A stretch of DNA of 13,709 nt, taken from UHGV virus genome UHGV-0265340; one strand, given 5' to 3'. Source of the DNA: a virus. The notes under the pieces are model-generated. The model was not told the DNA's origin, searched no databases, and saw nothing but the letters and a program-made list of their open reading frames with translations. Position 1 is the stretch's first letter, and every line of letters begins with the position of its first letter. Positions 1,595 through 8,054 of this stretch are shown here, piece after piece. The translations under genes and the position numbers were made by a program.

Positions 1595-1622
1595 TTGCGC
1601 ATTACACAACAGTCGCTATAAT
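1595..1622 (+). promoter_or_regulatory. Putative sigma70 promoter of higBA
   Basis: -35 TTGCGC (1595-1600), 16-bp spacer, perfect -10 TATAAT (1617-1622), about 28 bp upstream of the higB ATG. Confidence 0.4.
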
Positions 1623-1650
1623 GATTCGCGTAACGCAACAGGAAACAAGC

Positions 1651-1929
1651 ATGATAAAAAGCTGGAAACACAAAGGACTTCAACGTTTCTTTGAAACAGG
1701 AAATGCATCAGGCATAAATCCCAATCACGTTAAACGCCTGAGAACGCGCCTTCAGGTAATAGATCAAGCTGAAATCATTGATGATATTAACCTTGCCGGG
1801 TACAGGCTGCACCAGTTGCAGGGGGACAGATCCGATACATGGTCTGTCACCGTCTCCGGTAACTGGAGAATCACATTCGAGTTTCGGAACGGCGATGCTT
1901 ATATTCTTAACTACGAGGATTACCACTAA
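1651..1929 (+). CDS. higB: HigB toxin (RelE/ParE-fold mRNA interferase, plasmid-killer family)
   Basis: 92-aa ORF from ATG 1651 with SD AGGAAACA (1640-1647); near-colinear with Rts1/Proteus HigB as recalled (MIKSxKHKGL ... GNWRITFxFxNGDAYILNYEDYH); stop TAA overlaps the next ATG (TAATG 1927-1931); toxin-first order typical of higBA. Confidence 0.9.
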   Translation: MIKSWKHKGLQRFFETGNASGINPNHVKRLRTRLQVIDQAEIIDDINLAGYRLHQLQGDRSDTWSVTVSGNWRITFEFRNGDAYILNYEDYH

Positions 1930-2234
1930 TGGCGATGTTTAACCCCCCTCATCCCGGAGAAATTATTGCTGATATTCTGGAAGATCAGAATATTGGAATC
2001 AGGGAACTGGCAAGAGCGCTTGATGTCGCGCCTTCCACTGTTCAGCGACTGGTTTCAGGTAATGCGACAATATCTCCTGAAATGGCTGTTCGTCTCGCTG
2101 CTGTCCTGGGTGGAACTCCGTCTTCATGGATTCGTCTCCAGACGGCATGGAGCCTCGAAAAAGCGGAAAGAGAAGTTGACGTATCTCATCTCTCAACAAA
2201 ATACCGCCCGGCAGAAATTTCGCCTCATGCTTAA
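1929..2234 (+). CDS. higA: HigA antitoxin (XRE-family HTH)
   Basis: 101-aa ORF translationally coupled to higB; HTH segment IRELARALDVAPSTVQRLVSG; overall similarity to HigA antidote proteins (PHPGEII...LED motif at the N-terminus). Confidence 0.9.
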   Translation: MAMFNPPHPGEIIADILEDQNIGIRELARALDVAPSTVQRLVSGNATISPEMAVRLAAVLGGTPSSWIRLQTAWSLEKAEREVDVSHLSTKYRPAEISPHA

Positions 2235-2281
2235 CCACCGCGCCGTCATTCTGGCGGCGCTTTACCCCAGAGAAATATCAA

Positions 2282-2527
2282 TCACCGGATTACCACATCC
2301 CACTCCGGCTCCTGCCATCTCAAATCCGGTGAATCATTTCTCTCAGGAATAACCATTACGTCCTTTTCCCTTCGCTCCCTTTCTATCGCCATCACAGCCA
2401 ATGCTGTAACCATGATGTATTTTTGTTCGTCGGTTCCTGTTTCATAACGACGCATGAGGGTAAACTCGGGGCGATCAGTAACCTCAATGATTTCGTTAAT
2501 TTCTTTAATTTCGCGAGGAATATCCAT
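2282..2527 (-). CDS. Hypothetical small charged protein (81 aa), divergent from the DUF4145-like gene
   Basis: ATG at 2527 preceded on the minus strand by a strong SD (AAGGAGA, 8-nt spacing); translation is E/R-rich and protein-like; no recognisable family. Its start overlaps the plus-strand start at the CCATGG palindrome (2524-2529), so it may be spurious. Confidence 0.3.
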   Translation of the reverse strand: MDIPREIKEINEIIEVTDRPEFTLMRRYETGTDEQKYIMVTALAVMAIERERREKDVMVIPERNDSPDLRWQEPEWDVVIR

Positions 2528-3200
2528 GGGTTTAGTCTCCTTTGATATCACATGCCCGCACTGTTTAAAAGAGCGAGCTGTTATTGAGGCATTTGCCGAA
2601 AAACAAATTGAAAAAACACCTTTTTTTAACGTCGCTTTTGTATGCAGAAGTTGTCATCGAGGAGGTGTTGCTATTGTTGAAATCCCATCAGACCACTATC
2701 ACGGTCCCATGGCGGAAAGCCAGAAAAAAGACCTCGATATTCTGATTTCAGGAAATAGCCAGTACCGTTTCCGCAAGATCTATCCTGTGGTCAAAAAAAT
2801 TACCGCACCAGAATATACACCCCCGGTTGCAGACCGTACTTTTGTTGAGGCAAAAGAGGATTTACAGAGGAGGCGGTACGACACAGTGGTTATTCTTTGT
2901 CGCAGAGTCCTCGATATCTCCACGAAAAAACTGCTCGGCGATGAAGCAGGAAAAGAATCGCTGTCGCAACGTATTCAGATGATTTACAAAAAAGGCCTGA
3001 TCACTGAACAGATGAAGGAATGGGCTCATATTGTACGAATTGATGCCAATAAAGCAGTTCATACAGATGAAGTTTTCACACCAATTGAGGCAAGCCAGAT
3101 CCTGAGTTTTACCGAAATGTTTTTAGTCTACGCCTTCACTCTGCCTGCAATGGTGGAAGCCAGACGTGAACAAAAAAGATCAGATTCAGCCTCTATATGA
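2526..3200 (+). CDS. Zn-ribbon + DUF4145-like (putative HEPN-type) protein, candidate defence effector
   Basis: 224-aa ORF from ATG 2526 with SD GAGGAA (2515-2520); N-terminal CPHC (C10,C13) ... CRSC (C40,C43) zinc ribbon; C-terminal helical region with R171-x7-H179 (RIDANKAVH) matching the DUF4145 signature as I recall it. Confidence 0.85.
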   Translation: MGLVSFDITCPHCLKERAVIEAFAEKQIEKTPFFNVAFVCRSCHRGGVAIVEIPSDHYHGPMAESQKKDLDILISGNSQYRFRKIYPVVKKITAPEYTPPVADRTFVEAKEDLQRRRYDTVVILCRRVLDISTKKLLGDEAGKESLSQRIQMIYKKGLITEQMKEWAHIVRIDANKAVHTDEVFTPIEASQILSFTEMFLVYAFTLPAMVEARREQKRSDSASI

Positions 3201-3222
3201 ATCACTTTTCTGAACACGTAAG

Positions 3223-3244
3223 CCCCCGTCATTCACGACGGGGA
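3223..3244. other. Perfect 8-bp stem hairpin between convergent genes
   Basis: CCCCCGTC (3223-3230), loop ATTCAC, GACGGGGG (3237-3244); no U-tract on either strand, so at most a weak bidirectional terminator or RNA-stability element; overlaps the stop of the 3233-3664 gene. Confidence 0.4.
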
Positions 3245-3664
3245 GAACATCAATCCCTCTGCACTCCCTCGCCAGAATGCCAGCACACGCTGCATCGTTT
3301 CGCTGTTACGGCACTCGCGACAAATTGTGTTGTAGCGTCTGTCGTAGCGCCGTATTTCCCCATCTGGTAATGCCCGGATAAGGTCTGGATCAACGACAAC
3401 CGGTTTCTTCGACTTTGCCCTTGAGAGTTTTTTGCGGGCATTTTGCCAGTCCTTACGAGCCTGTTCAGACGGGAATACTCCGTAACCGGAATTGTAAACA
3501 TCACCACTGGCGGCCAGCTCCATGCATAAACGACCGACAGACGCATGACTGACACCAATTTCATCCGATAACTGCCGAATCGTGCCTCGTCCGTTAAGGC
3601 GTACGAATTCCACGATCAGCCCCTTAATTTTTTCCCGCTCTTCTGGTGTAAATGCTCTTGTCAT
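3233..3664 (-). CDS. Hypothetical prophage protein with winged-helix-like N-terminus
   Basis: 143-aa ORF from ATG 3664 (GGAG SD region 3675-3678; alternative GTG at 3670); HTH-like TIRQLSDEIGVSHASVGRLCMELAASGDV; part of the minus-strand early operon downstream of the replication genes. Confidence 0.7.
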   Translation of the reverse strand: MTRAFTPEEREKIKGLIVEFVRLNGRGTIRQLSDEIGVSHASVGRLCMELAASGDVYNSGYGVFPSEQARKDWQNARKKLSRAKSKKPVVVDPDLIRALPDGEIRRYDRRYNTICRECRNSETMQRVLAFWRGSAEGLMFSPS

Positions 3665-3679
3665 AAGCACCTCCGGAGA

Positions 3680-4429
3680 TCACTTTGTTGTCGGTGAATG
3701 AACCGGAATATCAGCAATCGAACTGAAAATATCCCGGTGTTTATTCAGCTCCCGCAGCGCGGCGCAGACTCGCTCCCACTTCTGAACATCACTTTTCGCC
3801 CTGCGCAGGGACGGAAAAATCAGCTCATCTGCTTGCGTTTCGGTAAACGATGGCAACGACTGCACAATGTCCGCCACAGTTTCTGTTTTAATTTCTTCCT
3901 GTGTTGCGGCTTCCCGGACTGGTAACGCAGCACCTGCTGGCTGAGGAAAGGCCTTACCATCATTTTCCGTTACCGGCGCGGTTTTCGGATCTGCTGGTAA
4001 ATTACCCCCCGGCATGCAGTAACGAAATTTACCGTTCTGATTAACGCGTGCCAGCCGCCCCGTTGCGGTTACCACCGCCAGCGTGGAAGCAACCTTGCGA
4101 GTGGTAACTCCGAACTTACCCGCTATTTCTTCACAGGTTTTAGCCCCCTCCTGAGAGATAAACTCAATCATCATGTCAGCGCTAACTTTTGGAGCGACCT
4201 CTTCGGTCAGCATATCCTGTGTTTCAGATTTTACTGGCCGCTCTTCGGTTACCCGGGATTCACCTTCGACAGCCAGAAACCAGGTGTGACCCGTTTTATC
4301 AACAACGCCATTTTTTTTGAGTTCCCACAGTTCGTTGAGAACTTCTTCACGGCTGATATCAAGCCGCGCCGCCAGTTCAACAGAATTGGCTTTTCCCATC
4401 GCTTTCAGTGCATGCAATACGGTTTCCAT
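3680..4429 (-). CDS. Hypothetical prophage DNA-binding protein (winged-helix N-terminus, acidic C-terminus)
   Basis: 249-aa ORF; ATG at 4429; follows the dnaC-like gene with a 25-bp gap; N-terminal wHTH-like segment SVELAARLDISREEVLNELWELKKNGVV; internal second HTH-like segment. Confidence 0.75.
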   Translation of the reverse strand: METVLHALKAMGKANSVELAARLDISREEVLNELWELKKNGVVDKTGHTWFLAVEGESRVTEERPVKSETQDMLTEEVAPKVSADMMIEFISQEGAKTCEEIAGKFGVTTRKVASTLAVVTATGRLARVNQNGKFRYCMPGGNLPADPKTAPVTENDGKAFPQPAGAALPVREAATQEEIKTETVADIVQSLPSFTETQADELIFPSLRRAKSDVQKWERVCAALRELNKHRDIFSSIADIPVHSPTTK

Positions 4430-4454: not shown

Positions 4455-5195
4455 TCACATACCCTGACGTCCAACGTTTGACCGCCAGCTCTCCCAGTTA
4501 AAATTCACCCAACGACCACCGTTCATGGTCATCCGGTCCATAATCCTCTCACCAAGAAGCGTGCTCATTGCGGCATGATTCAGGTTTGTCAGCATCCCGA
4601 CACTGCGCAGTGATGCCGTCCGGCGGTCAACAATCTGGTGCAGTACCACCTGCTCGTTTTTCGTCTCACGCTGGATGCCAATTTCGTCAAGAACCAGGAG
4701 GTCCACTTCGCACAGTTCACGCAAAAATTTTTCCCCTGACAGTCCGTCGTCATAGCTGGCATGTAACGCGCTCATCACATCCGCCACGGTGACCACTATC
4801 ACGGATTTACCGGCCTTCAGCAGACGATTACCCACAGCCGCCGCCAGATGATTTTTTCCGGTTCCCGGATTCCCGCTGAACACGAAGTTTGTACACCCGG
4901 TCATCAATTCATCGGCAATGGATTTCGCCTGGCTCAGAGCATGGCGCTGACCGTCGTTCTGCACCCGGTAGTTCCCGAATGAGCACTTCCTGTGAAGCGG
5001 CTGGATGCCCGCACGGTTCAGGATTTTTTCAACCCGCGCCTGATGATTCAGGCGGTTAATTTCCTCGCTGCGCTTACGGCCCTCAGCCAGTTGCCATTCC
5101 CGCCATTCGTCGGTCGTCCGGAACGGTGCTGCCACGTGCGGTGGTGCCAGACGGCGCACCCGTTCAAGAATCCCTCCTGTCGAAATGTTTTTCAT
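4455..5195 (-). CDS. DnaC-like replicative helicase loader (AAA+)
   Basis: 246-aa ORF colinear with E. coli DnaC as recalled: MKN... start, Walker A GNPGTGKNHLAAA, Walker B DLLVLDEIG, MLTNLN motif, C-terminal ...WVNFNWESWRS; SD AGGGGG upstream. Confidence 0.92.
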   Translation of the reverse strand: MKNISTGGILERVRRLAPPHVAAPFRTTDEWREWQLAEGRKRSEEINRLNHQARVEKILNRAGIQPLHRKCSFGNYRVQNDGQRHALSQAKSIADELMTGCTNFVFSGNPGTGKNHLAAAVGNRLLKAGKSVIVVTVADVMSALHASYDDGLSGEKFLRELCEVDLLVLDEIGIQRETKNEQVVLHQIVDRRTASLRSVGMLTNLNHAAMSTLLGERIMDRMTMNGGRWVNFNWESWRSNVGRQGM

Positions 5196-5201
5196 GGCTG
5201 A

Positions 5202-6278
5202 TTACCCCCTGAAACCCGGCGGAATTTCGGTGTCCGGTTCAGAAATGTGATTCACGCAACGCAGGCTGACTGCGCCAGCCTTCGGCAGCGACCACGGATT
5301 TTCGAAATTCCTGTTCGGGCCAAAAAACGTCGATGCCTGCTGAACAAATTCAGTTCCCGCTTTCCCGGTAGCCTCCAGGTATCTTGCGTAACGCCTCACG
5401 CCATCCAGCACGACATCCGGTGACACCCCTTCGCGTAATCTGGCCCTCCAGGCATTGAACGCGGATTTCTTCGGGTTTGACCCTGCCCGATGCGGATATT
5501 CACGCCAGACCCGTTCGAACACGTCAGGATAATCAACTCGTCCCGCAGACGGTCCCGGCATCGCCCGGGTTAACCCAATCGGCTTCCCGCTCATCGCGGA
5601 ATCGGCTTCAGGCTGCTGCGGTTGGCGTTGTTGCTCCGGTTCGACGATCAGCACCTGCTGCACACAACGCCCGGAATCTGCTTCCGGTGTCGTGCCAGCT
5701 GGTCCTGGACGTTCAGTCAGAACAGGACAAAAATCCCCCTGCGGGTCCGTGGCGATTTTTTCGCCATGGACCAGAAGGGTTTTATCCCTTTCCTGTTCTT
5801 GTTCCTGTTCTTGGCTTGAAAGGGGCTCTGAAGGGGCTTCAATTTTCCGACATGATTCACGTCTGACATCCAGGTGGAAATCATCCTTATATCTATCATA
5901 AAAGGATGATAAAAAAGGATTTTCCAGCAACACGGAATATTCATTTCTTACCCCAGCACAACGGTTATCGCCAGGTTTCAGCGATTCACCAACCTGCCAT
6001 GCTGCCATTTCATGCACCCATACAACCTCAGAATCATGGTCATAGCTGCAAAAACCAGCCTCGCAAGCCATTTGAAGCCCCTTAGAAGCCCCTTCAGGAT
6101 CAAGTCCGGTTTCGTGAGCAATGTACAAAACAGGCAGGTAATAAAGGCCCAGCATATTGGAATGAGGCGAGGTCATCATATACAACGCCACTACCATACA
6201 TTCCGGACCAGACTTCCTTAGTTTTCTCCCTGTTTCGCCTAACCAGAACTGAGGTGAAATTGTTGCGTAATTACGCAT
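5202..6278 (-). CDS. Phage replication protein with DnaT-like C-terminal domain
   Basis: 358-aa ORF with SD GAGGGG; C-terminus ends ...SEPDTEIPPGFRG, paralleling the C-terminus of primosomal protein DnaT as recalled; stop lies 7 bp before the dnaC-like start; contains low-complexity EQEQEQ and one copy of the upstream ~60-bp repeat. Confidence 0.85.
   Translation of the reverse strand: MRNYATISPQFWLGETGRKLRKSGPECMVVALYMMTSPHSNMLGLYYLPVLYIAHETGLDPEGASKGLQMACEAGFCSYDHDSEVVWVHEMAAWQVGESLKPGDNRCAGVRNEYSVLLENPFLSSFYDRYKDDFHLDVRRESCRKIEAPSEPLSSQEQEQEQERDKTLLVHGEKIATDPQGDFCPVLTERPGPAGTTPEADSGRCVQQVLIVEPEQQRQPQQPEADSAMSGKPIGLTRAMPGPSAGRVDYPDVFERVWREYPHRAGSNPKKSAFNAWRARLREGVSPDVVLDGVRRYARYLEATGKAGTEFVQQASTFFGPNRNFENPWSLPKAGAVSLRCVNHISEPDTEIPPGFRG
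5546..5640. repeat. Diverged third copy of the ~60-bp repeat, inside the replication gene
   Basis: CAGACGGTCCCGGCATCGCCCGGGTTAACCCAATCGGCTTC...AGGCTGCTGCGGTTGGCGTTGTTGCTCCGG matches the two copies at 6312-6472 apart from an internal 23-bp insertion. Confidence 0.8.
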
Positions 6279-6311
6279 AGTCCCCTCGCATACAAGATTT
6301 ACTCCATACCG

Positions 6312-6472
6312 CAGACGGTCCCGGTATCTCCCGGGTTAACCCAATCGGCTTCAGGCTGCTGCGGTTGGTGTGACTGCACATTGGTGTGACTGCACATCTT
6401 CACAGACGGTCCCGGTATCTCCGGGTTAACCCAATCGGCTTCAGGCTGCTGCGGTTGGTGTTGTTGCTGGCG
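6312..6472. repeat. Two direct copies of a ~59-bp repeat (91-bp period) plus an embedded 16-bp tandem duplication
   Basis: Copies at 6312-6370 and 6403-6460 (CAGACGGTCCCGGTATCTC(C)CGGGTTAACCCAATCGGCTTCAGGCTGCTGCGGTTGGTG); TTGGTGTGACTGCACA duplicated in tandem at 6365-6396; located between the cII-like gene and the replication gene. Confidence 0.85.
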
Positions 6473-6531: not shown

Positions 6532-6828
6532 TCAGATATTCATCAGGATTTGCTCAGAACGTCCGGCCCCAACCGGACGTTTTTTATTTGCATGAACGTT
6601 AATGGCATGCTGGAAAGCCCGGCTGATCGGACTGATATCAGATGCCATCTGGAACGCGCATAAAATCGCCGCGATGTATCGCCAGTCGGTACGACTGATC
6701 TTCGATTCATGGCAGCCAATCATCTTTGCCAGTCCCCTTTGCGTCAGAGCTGACAGGTTGATAAGTAAATCCGTTTCAGCGCGATCGATATCGCGCTGTG
6801 ATAGTTTGCTGTAACTTGTTTGTGACAT
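6532..6828 (-). CDS. cII: CII-like transcriptional activator
   Basis: 98-aa ORF; C-terminus ...NKKRPVGAGRSEQILMNI parallels lambda CII ...NKKRPAATERSEQIQMEF as recalled; central HTH; canonical position between the cro-like and replication genes. Confidence 0.85.
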   Translation of the reverse strand: MSQTSYSKLSQRDIDRAETDLLINLSALTQRGLAKMIGCHESKISRTDWRYIAAILCAFQMASDISPISRAFQHAINVHANKKRPVGAGRSEQILMNI

Positions 6829-6971: not shown

Positions 6972-7211
6972 TTATCGTTGACGATCAGGATTCGCTACAT
7001 TGCGTAACCATTCGGCGGTAAATTTGCCATCAGATGCATTGGCGAGAATTTCCGAATAGTTGGTTTTCATCGTGTATTCGGTGCGAGGTAACGCTCCGTT
7101 TTTAACCCACTTATGAATTGCAACATTTGACAACCCGCATAAACGGGCAGCGACTGTTTGACCACCAACAGCTTTTACTGCGAATTGTATCGGATTCATA
7201 CTGCTATCCAT
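6972..7211 (-). CDS. cro: Cro-like HTH repressor
   Basis: 79-aa ORF (75 aa if translation starts at ATG 7199, which has a weak GGA SD); HTH QTVAARLCGLSNVAIHKWV; divergent from the cI-like gene across the operator region; pR-like -35 TTGACA on the minus strand (7263-7258). Confidence 0.8.
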   Translation of the reverse strand: MDSSMNPIQFAVKAVGGQTVAARLCGLSNVAIHKWVKNGALPRTEYTMKTNYSEILANASDGKFTAEWLRNVANPDRQR

Positions 7212-7283: not shown

Positions 7284-8054
7284 ATGGTTAAAAAAGATGA
7301 ACTAAAAGAAGCGTTCTCAAAGAGACTACTACAGGCATTATTAGATGCAGGTGTGGGCGGACGCGGTCAGGCTAAGCGGATTCAGAATGCAATGAAACTG
7401 CGAGGCATTGATATCTCTGAACCGGGGATCTGGAAATGGCTTAATTCTGCATCAATTCCAGAAAAAACAAGTATTTTGGCACTTAGTGACTGGCTTTCCG
7501 TGAAGCCGGAGTGGTTGGAGTATGGCAGTAACGAGCCATCCGTAAAACAGCGACCTTCTATTCCAAACGAATCAGAATGGGGTTCCCTTGAAACTTGGGA
7601 CAGAAATACACAACTACGAGATGATGAAGTTGAGGTGCCATATCTGAAAGACATTGAGTTTGCATGCGGTGACGGAAGAGTTCATTGCGAAGATCATAAT
7701 GGTTTTAAATTACGCTTCTCAAAAGCAACCCTGCGCCGTGTCGGAGCTAACAGTGATGGTTCTGGTGTGCTTTGTTTTCCGGCTACTGGTGATAGCATGG
7801 AACCCGTGATACCAGATGGAACAACAATCGCAGTAGACACAAACAACAAACGTATTGTTGACGGCAAACTCTACGCCATCGCACAGCCTGGTGTCGGTGA
7901 TGAAAAACTGAAGCGTATAAAGCTATTGTACAGACGCCCCGGTGGAAAACTAATCATACGCAGTTATAACAGTGAAGAGTACCCTGACGAAGAAGCAGAT
8001 ACTCAAAGCGTGGAGATTATCGGAAAAGTTTTCTGGTATTCAGTTCTGCTTTAG
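7284..8054 (+). CDS. cI: CI-type prophage repressor (HTH + LexA-like S24 autopeptidase domain)
   Basis: 256-aa ORF; C-terminal S24 motifs (GDSMEP, downstream catalytic Lys region KLKRIK); N-terminal DNA-binding region; no SD, start directly downstream of the -10 (leaderless). Confidence 0.92.
   Translation: MVKKDELKEAFSKRLLQALLDAGVGGRGQAKRIQNAMKLRGIDISEPGIWKWLNSASIPEKTSILALSDWLSVKPEWLEYGSNEPSVKQRPSIPNESEWGSLETWDRNTQLRDDEVEVPYLKDIEFACGDGRVHCEDHNGFKLRFSKATLRRVGANSDGSGVLCFPATGDSMEPVIPDGTTIAVDTNNKRIVDGKLYAIAQPGVGDEKLKRIKLLYRRPGGKLIIRSYNSEEYPDEEADTQSVEIIGKVFWYSVLL

Follow-up and report, generated by a model that had tools for sequence, protein, structure and literature searches.

A predicted RAZR-like zinc-ribbon/HEPN protein and a HigBA toxin-antitoxin module on either side of a backbone gene in an Escherichia coli lambdoid prophage

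RAZR (ring-activated zinc-finger RNase), formerly named PD-T7-4, is known from Escherichia coli UMB1727 (PDB 9y9c; PMC13017515, PMC9519451). It is a single-protein abortive-infection RNase in which an N-terminal Cys4 zinc ribbon is followed by a C-terminal DUF4145/HEPN domain, and substitution of either R146 or H154 abolishes defence (PMC13017515). RAZR alone is non-toxic; its assembly into a 24-mer on phage portal or Erf-like recombinase rings results in nonspecific cleavage of single-stranded RNA. Specificity is determined by the zinc-finger domain, the most variable part of the protein, whose fold was compared by the authors with the RPB9 zinc ribbon (PMC13017515). A conserved linker connects the two RAZR domains and packs on the HEPN domain. 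DUF4145 is itself recognized as a HEPN family, in which fusions to zinc ribbons are known (PMC3710099). Another validated E. coli defence protein, DS-38 (HEP2, WP_001313577.1), also combines HEPN and a zinc finger, the latter being unlike that of PD-T7-4 according to its authors (DefensePredictor). Here we describe a 13,709-nt stretch of viral DNA, UHGV virus genome UHGV-0265340 (the window; all coordinates refer to it unless another locus is named). In its slot between the replication genes and ninB it carries a higBA toxin-antitoxin (TA) operon and a gene for a 224-amino-acid (aa) zinc-ribbon and DUF4145 protein, with a small gene, orf81, between them. A first-pass annotation had taken these genes for a self-contained cargo unit. 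Our preferred reading, to which we give a probability of about 60%, is that HigBA and a single-gene RAZR-like abortive-infection RNase are two independent moron modules flanking orf81 and not one new multi-gene system. It draws on the gene structure, fold and conserved residues observed, on homology, and on a distribution that is solitary and independent of higBA.

The RAZR-like gene occupies positions 2526-3200 of the plus strand. Its product consists of a zinc-ribbon domain and putative sensor (aa 1-52, 2526-2681, with Cys codons at 2553, 2562, 2643 and 2652), a hypervariable segment (aa 53-86) followed by a proline-rich linker (aa 87-99; the two together at 2682-2822), and a putative RNase domain of the HEPN (DUF4145) type (2823-3197) with the predicted catalytic residues R171 (3036-3038), N175 and H179 (3060-3062). 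The protein matched PF13643 (DUF4145) with an E-value of 3.9e-9. A database search returned 83 relatives, nearly all of them 212-225 aa long and from Enterobacterales, and in an alignment of 38 relatives C10, C13, C40, C43, R171, N175 and H179 were invariant. The AlphaFold2 model, with a predicted local distance difference test (pLDDT) score of 90, has an N-terminal beta-ribbon (pLDDT 89-96; strands at residues 4-6, 20-27, 33-40 and 46-52) and a C-terminal helical bundle. The top structures found by Foldseek were 1o3u, 7ae6 and 5yep, and the ribbon gave a weak profile match to the RPB9 zinc ribbon (E 0.29). The earlier proposal of a zinc-ribbon and HEPN-type protein with a defence-like profile is supported.

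For comparison with RAZR, the RAZR-Ec sequence was assembled from the overlapping database fragments P0130 and P0102; its numbering fits the published residues and the 219-aa PDB chain. BLASTP aligned the two proteins over 141 aa of the linker and HEPN domain with 24% identity (E 3e-5), and profile-profile alignment with hhalign gave an E-value of 2e-5 and a probability of 76.6%. When the family profile was run against the PDB, chain OA of 9y9c, a DUF4145 protein present in 24 copies, was matched weakly (E 0.089). In that alignment IVRIDsNgAVH stands opposite ICRIVGNQAVH, and R171, N175 and H179 correspond to RAZR R146, N150 and H154, as they do in the BLASTP alignment. As we read it, the latter also places P87, P95, P99 and E108-A109, all invariant among the aligned relatives, opposite the RAZR linker prolines (at about P66, P74 and P79) and E88-A89, and a proline-rich linker appears to be common to the two proteins. 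The PD-T7-4 model of PADLOC matched 22 of the 38 relatives at E < 0.1, the best at 2.8e-7. The combination of zinc ribbon and DUF4145, in which the first-pass annotation had recognized no named system, is the architecture of PD-T7-4/RAZR. The 224-aa protein is most likely a divergent RAZR/PD-T7-4 relative and a single-gene HEPN effector.

A number of observations weigh against this assignment. The similarity to RAZR is weak and does not extend beyond the linker and HEPN domain; the zinc ribbons could not be aligned by sequence, and roughly 25-30 extra hypervariable residues stand between the second zinc knuckle and the linker here, so that most of aa 53-86 is additional to RAZR. The hhalign probability is only 76.6%, the match of the 224-aa protein itself to the PADLOC PD-T7-4 model is weak (E 0.0022, 15.5 bits), and the HEPN domain fits the generic Pfam DUF4145 model better than it does that of PD-T7-4. 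A phmmer search of PDB sequences with the 224-aa protein gave no match. It is precisely in the catalytic loop, residues 173-179, that the pLDDT of the AlphaFold2 model falls below 50, and DS-38 shows that proteins joining HEPN to a zinc finger can vary in mechanism. Expression raises a further difficulty: neither consensus nor relaxed scans directly upstream of the gene detected a sigma-70 promoter with more than 7/12 matches, and in E. coli the gene always lies downstream of a same-strand TA operon. Because such an operon always precedes it there, read-through from the TA promoter is possible. In other genera the gene stands alone and must therefore carry its own expression signals. Given the weak PADLOC score, the protein may not be called by defence-annotation pipelines.

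In several respects the gene behaves like an immune gene. Variability is greatest in residues 21-90, with a pairwise identity of 0.2-0.35 (mean 0.22 for aa 53-86); the HEPN domain has a mean of 0.67, which rises to 0.84 near the catalytic motif. In a second E. coli prophage (L010, where the gene lies at 5001-5675) identity to the window is 65-82% across 2550-3100, and higBA, orf81 and the 3′ flank are 97-100% identical; this is a localised allele replacement inside the DUF4145 gene. The GC content of the gene is 41-44%, compared with about 47-58% in neighbouring stretches of the window. Homologues with 44-53% identity were found in three prophage slots: between replication genes and ninB in Atlantibacter and Yersinia, between lysis and terminase genes in Pantoea and Enterobacter, and between int and xis in Enterobacter kobei. 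In all of these they were solitary and always opposite to the flanking lytic genes. Remoter relatives are present in Klebsiella and Burkholderia phages. Phages PhiR5_2 and PhiR12_3 encode an identical or 97% identical protein, and a literature search for these two phages found no relevant paper. A separate observation concerns the Enterobacter prophages with the homologue in the lysis/terminase slot (L007-L009, 5776-5985), where it adjoins a 69-aa fragment of the small terminase subunit (Terminase_2); this suggests that the insertion duplicated or truncated terS.

The second module is formed by higB and higA, both on the plus strand. higB (1651-1929) encodes a 92-aa RelE-fold toxin of the HigB type, which matched PF05015 (E 4.2e-22, 78.9 bits with a cut-off of 27) and phrog_3066 (E 1.8e-37). 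It is similar over its full length to HigB of Proteus vulgaris Rts1 (4mct_B, E 4.6e-32), the C-terminal NGDAYILNYEDYH being identical in both. higA (1929-2234) encodes a 101-aa helix-turn-helix (HTH) antitoxin that matched HTH_3 (E 4.9e-10), passed the NCBIfam equivalog TIGR02607 (antidote_HigA; 88.4 bits, cut-off 47.7) and resembles structures 2icp_A (E 8e-28) and 4mcx_A (E 1e-19). The higB stop and higA start codons share one base in TAATG at 1927-1931. HigB and HigA are a genuine, translationally coupled TA pair, as had been suggested, and by its sequence HigBA is classed as a canonical, ordinary type II TA operon. In such systems the toxin cleaves mRNA in a ribosome-dependent manner and is neutralised by HigA. 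A PADLOC search returned no match for HigB or orf81 and only weak HTH matches for HigA. The putative higBA promoter (1595-1622, plus strand) has a -35 element TTGCGC (1595-1600), a 16-nt spacer and a -10 element TATAAT (1617-1622). The sigma70-like promoter claimed earlier stands as far as its TATAAT is concerned; its -35 element is weak (3/6). A relaxed scan gave it 9/12 matches, and a stricter consensus promoter scan did not call it. Probably the operon controls its own expression through this TATAAT promoter at 1617.

Between the two modules lies orf81 (2282-2527, minus strand), a gene for an 81-aa protein that is annotated in RefSeq and matches phrog_8371 (E 2e-55), with no function assigned. 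The possible divergent small open reading frame (ORF) of the first-pass annotation does exist, but on the strand of the operon, and so it interrupts the plus-strand block. Its ATG and that of the DUF4145 gene overlap head to head (CCATGG); no NCBIfam model matched either product. The commonest orf81 variant (255 blocks of the collection) has the same backbone without the DUF4145 gene. Next to it a 166-aa ORF on the operon strand replaces the DUF4145 gene, and a RelE plus two-HTH module replaces higBA. Because the backbone is kept in this variant with both cargoes exchanged, orf81 is a backbone gene, flanked by one variable slot to the left and one to the right. The upstream slot holds either the DUF4145 gene or the 166-aa ORF. 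The downstream slot holds one of four opposite-strand modules of the RelE superfamily: HigBA in this window, RelE/ParE-HTH with extra genes in phage 75/02 Stx (Shiga toxin) and strain EC2, ParD-x-HigA in O22:H8 strain 154, and RelE-HTH-HTH in prophages with the commonest orf81 variant. In otherwise similar prophages the stretch between orf81 and the isrK/antirepressor genes (1560-2260; L002, L019, L020 and L022) is a TA hotspot. The 166-aa ORF (L018, 2686-3186; L022, 2199-2699) is an alternative operon-strand cargo and had no domain match.

The two modules meet at a 9-bp, GC-rich hairpin 3′ of higA (2240-2260, plus strand), found as an inverted repeat and followed by UUUA. Its predicted stability is -16.5 kcal/mol (z = -3.9), which was equalled by none of 200 shuffled sequences. 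Sequence homologous to phage 75/02 Stx begins at 2237, and that homologous to the higA module of Stx2a phages stops at 2259. We regard the hairpin as a weak terminator-like element that also marks where, in the mosaic, the TA module is joined to the orf81/DUF4145 module; it has the appearance of a recombination joint common to the modules. Nearby, an imperfect 30-nt inverted repeat (2262-2291/2323-2352; arms 77% complementary and separated by 31 nt) overlaps the 3′ end of orf81.

Co-occurrence of the two modules was counted in a set of 5,426 complete E. coli genomes, of which 37 contain the DUF4145 gene (full length in 36) and 22 contain intact higBA. The two adjoin each other in 14 genomes, and in three more the DUF4145 gene stands beside a version in which HigB has been replaced. 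Eight of the 22 intact higBA copies are located away from the DUF4145 gene; strains G1/2 and UCPROB-001 have both, with about 1 Mb between them. Copies of higBA that lack the DUF4145 gene, such as that of STEC2018-553, are still beside an ORF6N antirepressor gene; as this neighbour is kept, higBA travels with the antirepressor side of the mosaic. In other genera no TA module adjoins the homologues, and no neighbour is conserved across the family. Consistent co-occurrence of HigBA and the HEPN protein, by which a multi-gene system would be recognized, was not found. The supposed self-contained unit thus separates into two independent variable slots around orf81, with higBA and the DUF4145 gene assorting independently. 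The expectation that the cargo would prove variable on tabulation across related prophages was confirmed. In about 46 genomes of E. coli, O157:H7 Stx2a prophages among them, only the higA part is kept.

These counts bear directly on the view of the first-pass annotation that HigBA, the zinc-ribbon/HEPN protein and perhaps orf81 belong to one integrated system in which two RNases cooperate. That higB, higA and the DUF4145 gene share one strand, that no good promoter directly precedes the latter, and that every E. coli variant examined has a RelE-type TA operon upstream of it on its own strand would all agree with such a system, and a single higBA-DUF4145 transcript is possible because the weak hairpin at 2240-2260 could be read through. 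We nevertheless consider it very improbable. Only 14 of the 36 full-length DUF4145 loci adjoin intact higBA, 8 of 22 intact higBA copies are elsewhere (even in the same genome at about 1 Mb), and the TA partner is exchanged among four unrelated versions. Homologues of other genera do without a TA neighbour altogether, a backbone gene of the opposite strand separates the modules, and RAZR functions as a single gene (PMC13017515). The head-to-head overlap of start codons invites another explanation, in which orf81 and the DUF4145 gene are a functional pair and orf81, as a lytic-operon inhibitor, antitoxin or self-immunity factor, silences the RNase on induction. An orf81 homologue (motif DRPEFxLMxRYET) does keep the same position in Atlantibacter and Yersinia prophages, beside DUF4145 homologues that are only 47-51% identical, and of seven phage records that contain orf81, six have the DUF4145 gene as well. 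Such a pair is unlikely all the same, as the commonest orf81 variant has the 166-aa operon-strand ORF in place of the DUF4145 gene, and homologues in the lysis/terminase and int/xis slots lack orf81. Nor do the two genes co-vary: orf81 remains about 95% identical where the DUF4145 allele has been swapped to 71%. Since RAZR alone is non-toxic, no antitoxin would be needed. The stronger form, orf81 as an obligate partner, was rejected, orf81 being widespread without the DUF4145 gene; a role of orf81 in self-immunity is possible.

We judge it equally unlikely that the DUF4145 protein functions in the life of the prophage itself and not in defence, for example as a regulator that binds DNA or RNA or as a nuclease of lytic growth. 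The PHROGs label for the phrog_1305 family is "DNA binding protein", and a zinc ribbon is able to bind nucleic acid; no experimental basis for the label was found. A gene with such a role would hardly be expected always to oppose the flanking lytic operons in differing non-core slots, or to be limited to 37 of the 5,426 E. coli genomes. Invariant HEPN catalytic residues, a hypervariable N-terminal surface and the swapping of alleles likewise speak against it.

Under the preferred reading of two independent modules, and by analogy with RAZR/PD-T7-4, the RAZR-like protein would be made in the lysogen and would be inert alone. During superinfection its zinc-ribbon region, with the hypervariable surface serving as infection sensor, would bind an oligomeric phage protein. 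Binding would reposition HEPN dimers into an active RNase with the predicted site R171-x3-N175-x3-H179, and cleavage of RNA would then shut down translation and lead to abortive infection. Homology, the conserved residues and the gene's genomic behaviour are the grounds on which we infer this defence phenotype and mode of activation, as well as lysogen expression, RNase activity and the trigger. Lytic transcription of the prophage's pR operon would oppose the gene, which lies antisense to it. A more speculative extension, which we hold to be possible though rather doubtful, is that the protein represents a distinct, unannotated clade of RAZR-like sensor RNases confined to Enterobacterales lambdoid prophages, with relatives in Burkholderia phages. 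Its enlarged, hypervariable ribbon region would sense phage assemblies that differ from those known for RAZR, and the antisense placement, head to head with orf81, would silence the gene at induction so that the prophage's own portal or recombinase rings would not act as a trigger.

With 99.9% identity the window matches a prophage in the chromosome of E. coli JNEC-KY204, and parts of it resemble Stx-converting and related lambdoid phages; the host element is an E. coli lambdoid, Stx-phage-like prophage. The cI repressor gene (7284-8054, plus strand) diverges from the early-right operon, which runs along the minus strand in the order cro (6972-7211), cII (6532-6828), an O-like gene (5202-6278), a DnaC/IstB-like gene (4455-5195), a DUF1627 gene (3680-4429), a DUF977 "Ren-like" gene (3233-3670), an ORF6N/P22_AR_C antirepressor (Ant) gene (621-1313, with Pfam and PHROG matches) and ninB (156-566). 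Three plus-strand genes, namely higB, higA and the DUF4145 gene, lie between the DUF977 and antirepressor genes. The placement of the cargo opposite to the early-right operon was therefore described correctly, and so was the variability of the slot between the replication genes and ninB, whose contents differ among related prophages. Direct repeats of 40-50 nt are common to the O-like replication gene and a small ORF upstream of it, and a perfect 16-nt tandem duplication is also present (together at 5543-5628, 6309-6371, 6403-6461 and 6365-6396); the repeats may be iteron- or origin-related.

Upstream of the antirepressor gene (1313-621) lies an isrK/C4 regulatory module on the minus strand (1366-1587). 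A promoter scan detected a strong, near-consensus isrK promoter, TTGACA-18-TATATT, at 1587-1558, back to back with the putative higBA promoter. The module further comprises an isrK-like small RNA including its terminator (1551-1475), the C4 targets a1/b1 (1564-1512) and the C4 antisense RNA (1449-1366). All three RNA elements were Rfam matches; scores of 74.7 bits for RF01394, the isrK family (gathering threshold 50), 66.7 bits for RF01695 (45) and 47.1 bits for RF03163 (46.7) were obtained. Read-through of IsrK governs translation of the antirepressor (PMC4825925). This is a complete isrK/C4-antirepressor module of a known type, a neighbour located outside the supposed island. The terminator scan placed the minus-strand terminator at 1480-1496. 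The element proposed as the left bracket of the island is thus real, but it belongs to the isrK-like RNA of the antirepressor module and does not mark a boundary. On the right, a perfect 8-bp hairpin had been reported at 3223-3244; we found 7 Watson-Crick pairs (3224-3230/3237-3243) enclosing a 6-nt loop, and no T tract. This hairpin (3224-3243, -14.5 kcal/mol, z = -2.4) lies between the convergent DUF4145 and DUF977 genes, partly overlapping the end of the DUF977 ORF (3233), and is not a canonical terminator.

Should the RAZR-like protein prove active, RNase immunity based on ring assembly would extend to a divergent clade that the current PADLOC model matches weakly and whose carriers are lambdoid and Stx-type prophages in E. 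coli and Shigella, with a bearing on superinfection exclusion among Stx-like phages. Swaps of the sensor region in otherwise identical prophages form a natural allelic series that would then be suitable for mapping how zinc-ribbon sensors choose their triggers. For annotation, a much-used variable region proves to consist of two slots around a backbone gene, with diverse RelE-type TA modules cycling through one of them.

Each part of the locus can be set beside a known system. HigBA resembles the Rts1 operon of Proteus vulgaris (PDB 4MCT/4MCX) and, in its antitoxin, E. coli CFT073 HigA (2ICP): the toxin gene likewise comes first and stop and start codons overlap. It differs from Rts1 HigBA in residing in a prophage accessory slot and not on a plasmid, and is known here from sequence. 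The order of promoter, isrK-like small RNA with terminator, C4 RNA and antirepressor gene is that of Salmonella Gifsy-1 IsrK/anrP and of the P1/P7 c4-ant immI locus; here, unlike in those loci, the module stands back to back with the higBA promoter. Type II/VII TA systems of the HEPN-MNT kind share with the 224-aa protein the HEPN fold and an R...H active site, and provide the closest solved folds (5yep and 7ae6/7ae2). Their motif is Rx4-6H and that found here R-x7-H; a zinc-ribbon sensor is fused to the domain here, and a domain search of the neighbouring ORFs found no nucleotidyltransferase domain. DS-38 was ruled out as the identity of the protein by its gene length of 1,101 nt (about 366 aa). 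In the comparison with RAZR the knuckle spacing differs (26 residues here, 29 in RAZR), as do the C-terminal tails. Shared with RAZR are the size (224 and 219 aa), an N-terminal Cys4 zinc ribbon with a CPHC first knuckle, what appears to be the proline-rich linker followed by an EA motif, and a C-terminal DUF4145/HEPN fold with R-x3-N-x3-H, predicted to be catalytic, at aligned positions. In both the N-terminal sensor region is the most variable part, and RAZR-clade relatives are also carried by temperate phages of Streptococcus and by plasmids. RAZR is encoded by a single gene, and the same is indicated for the protein described here by genomic evidence, its homologues being solitary in three different prophage slots.

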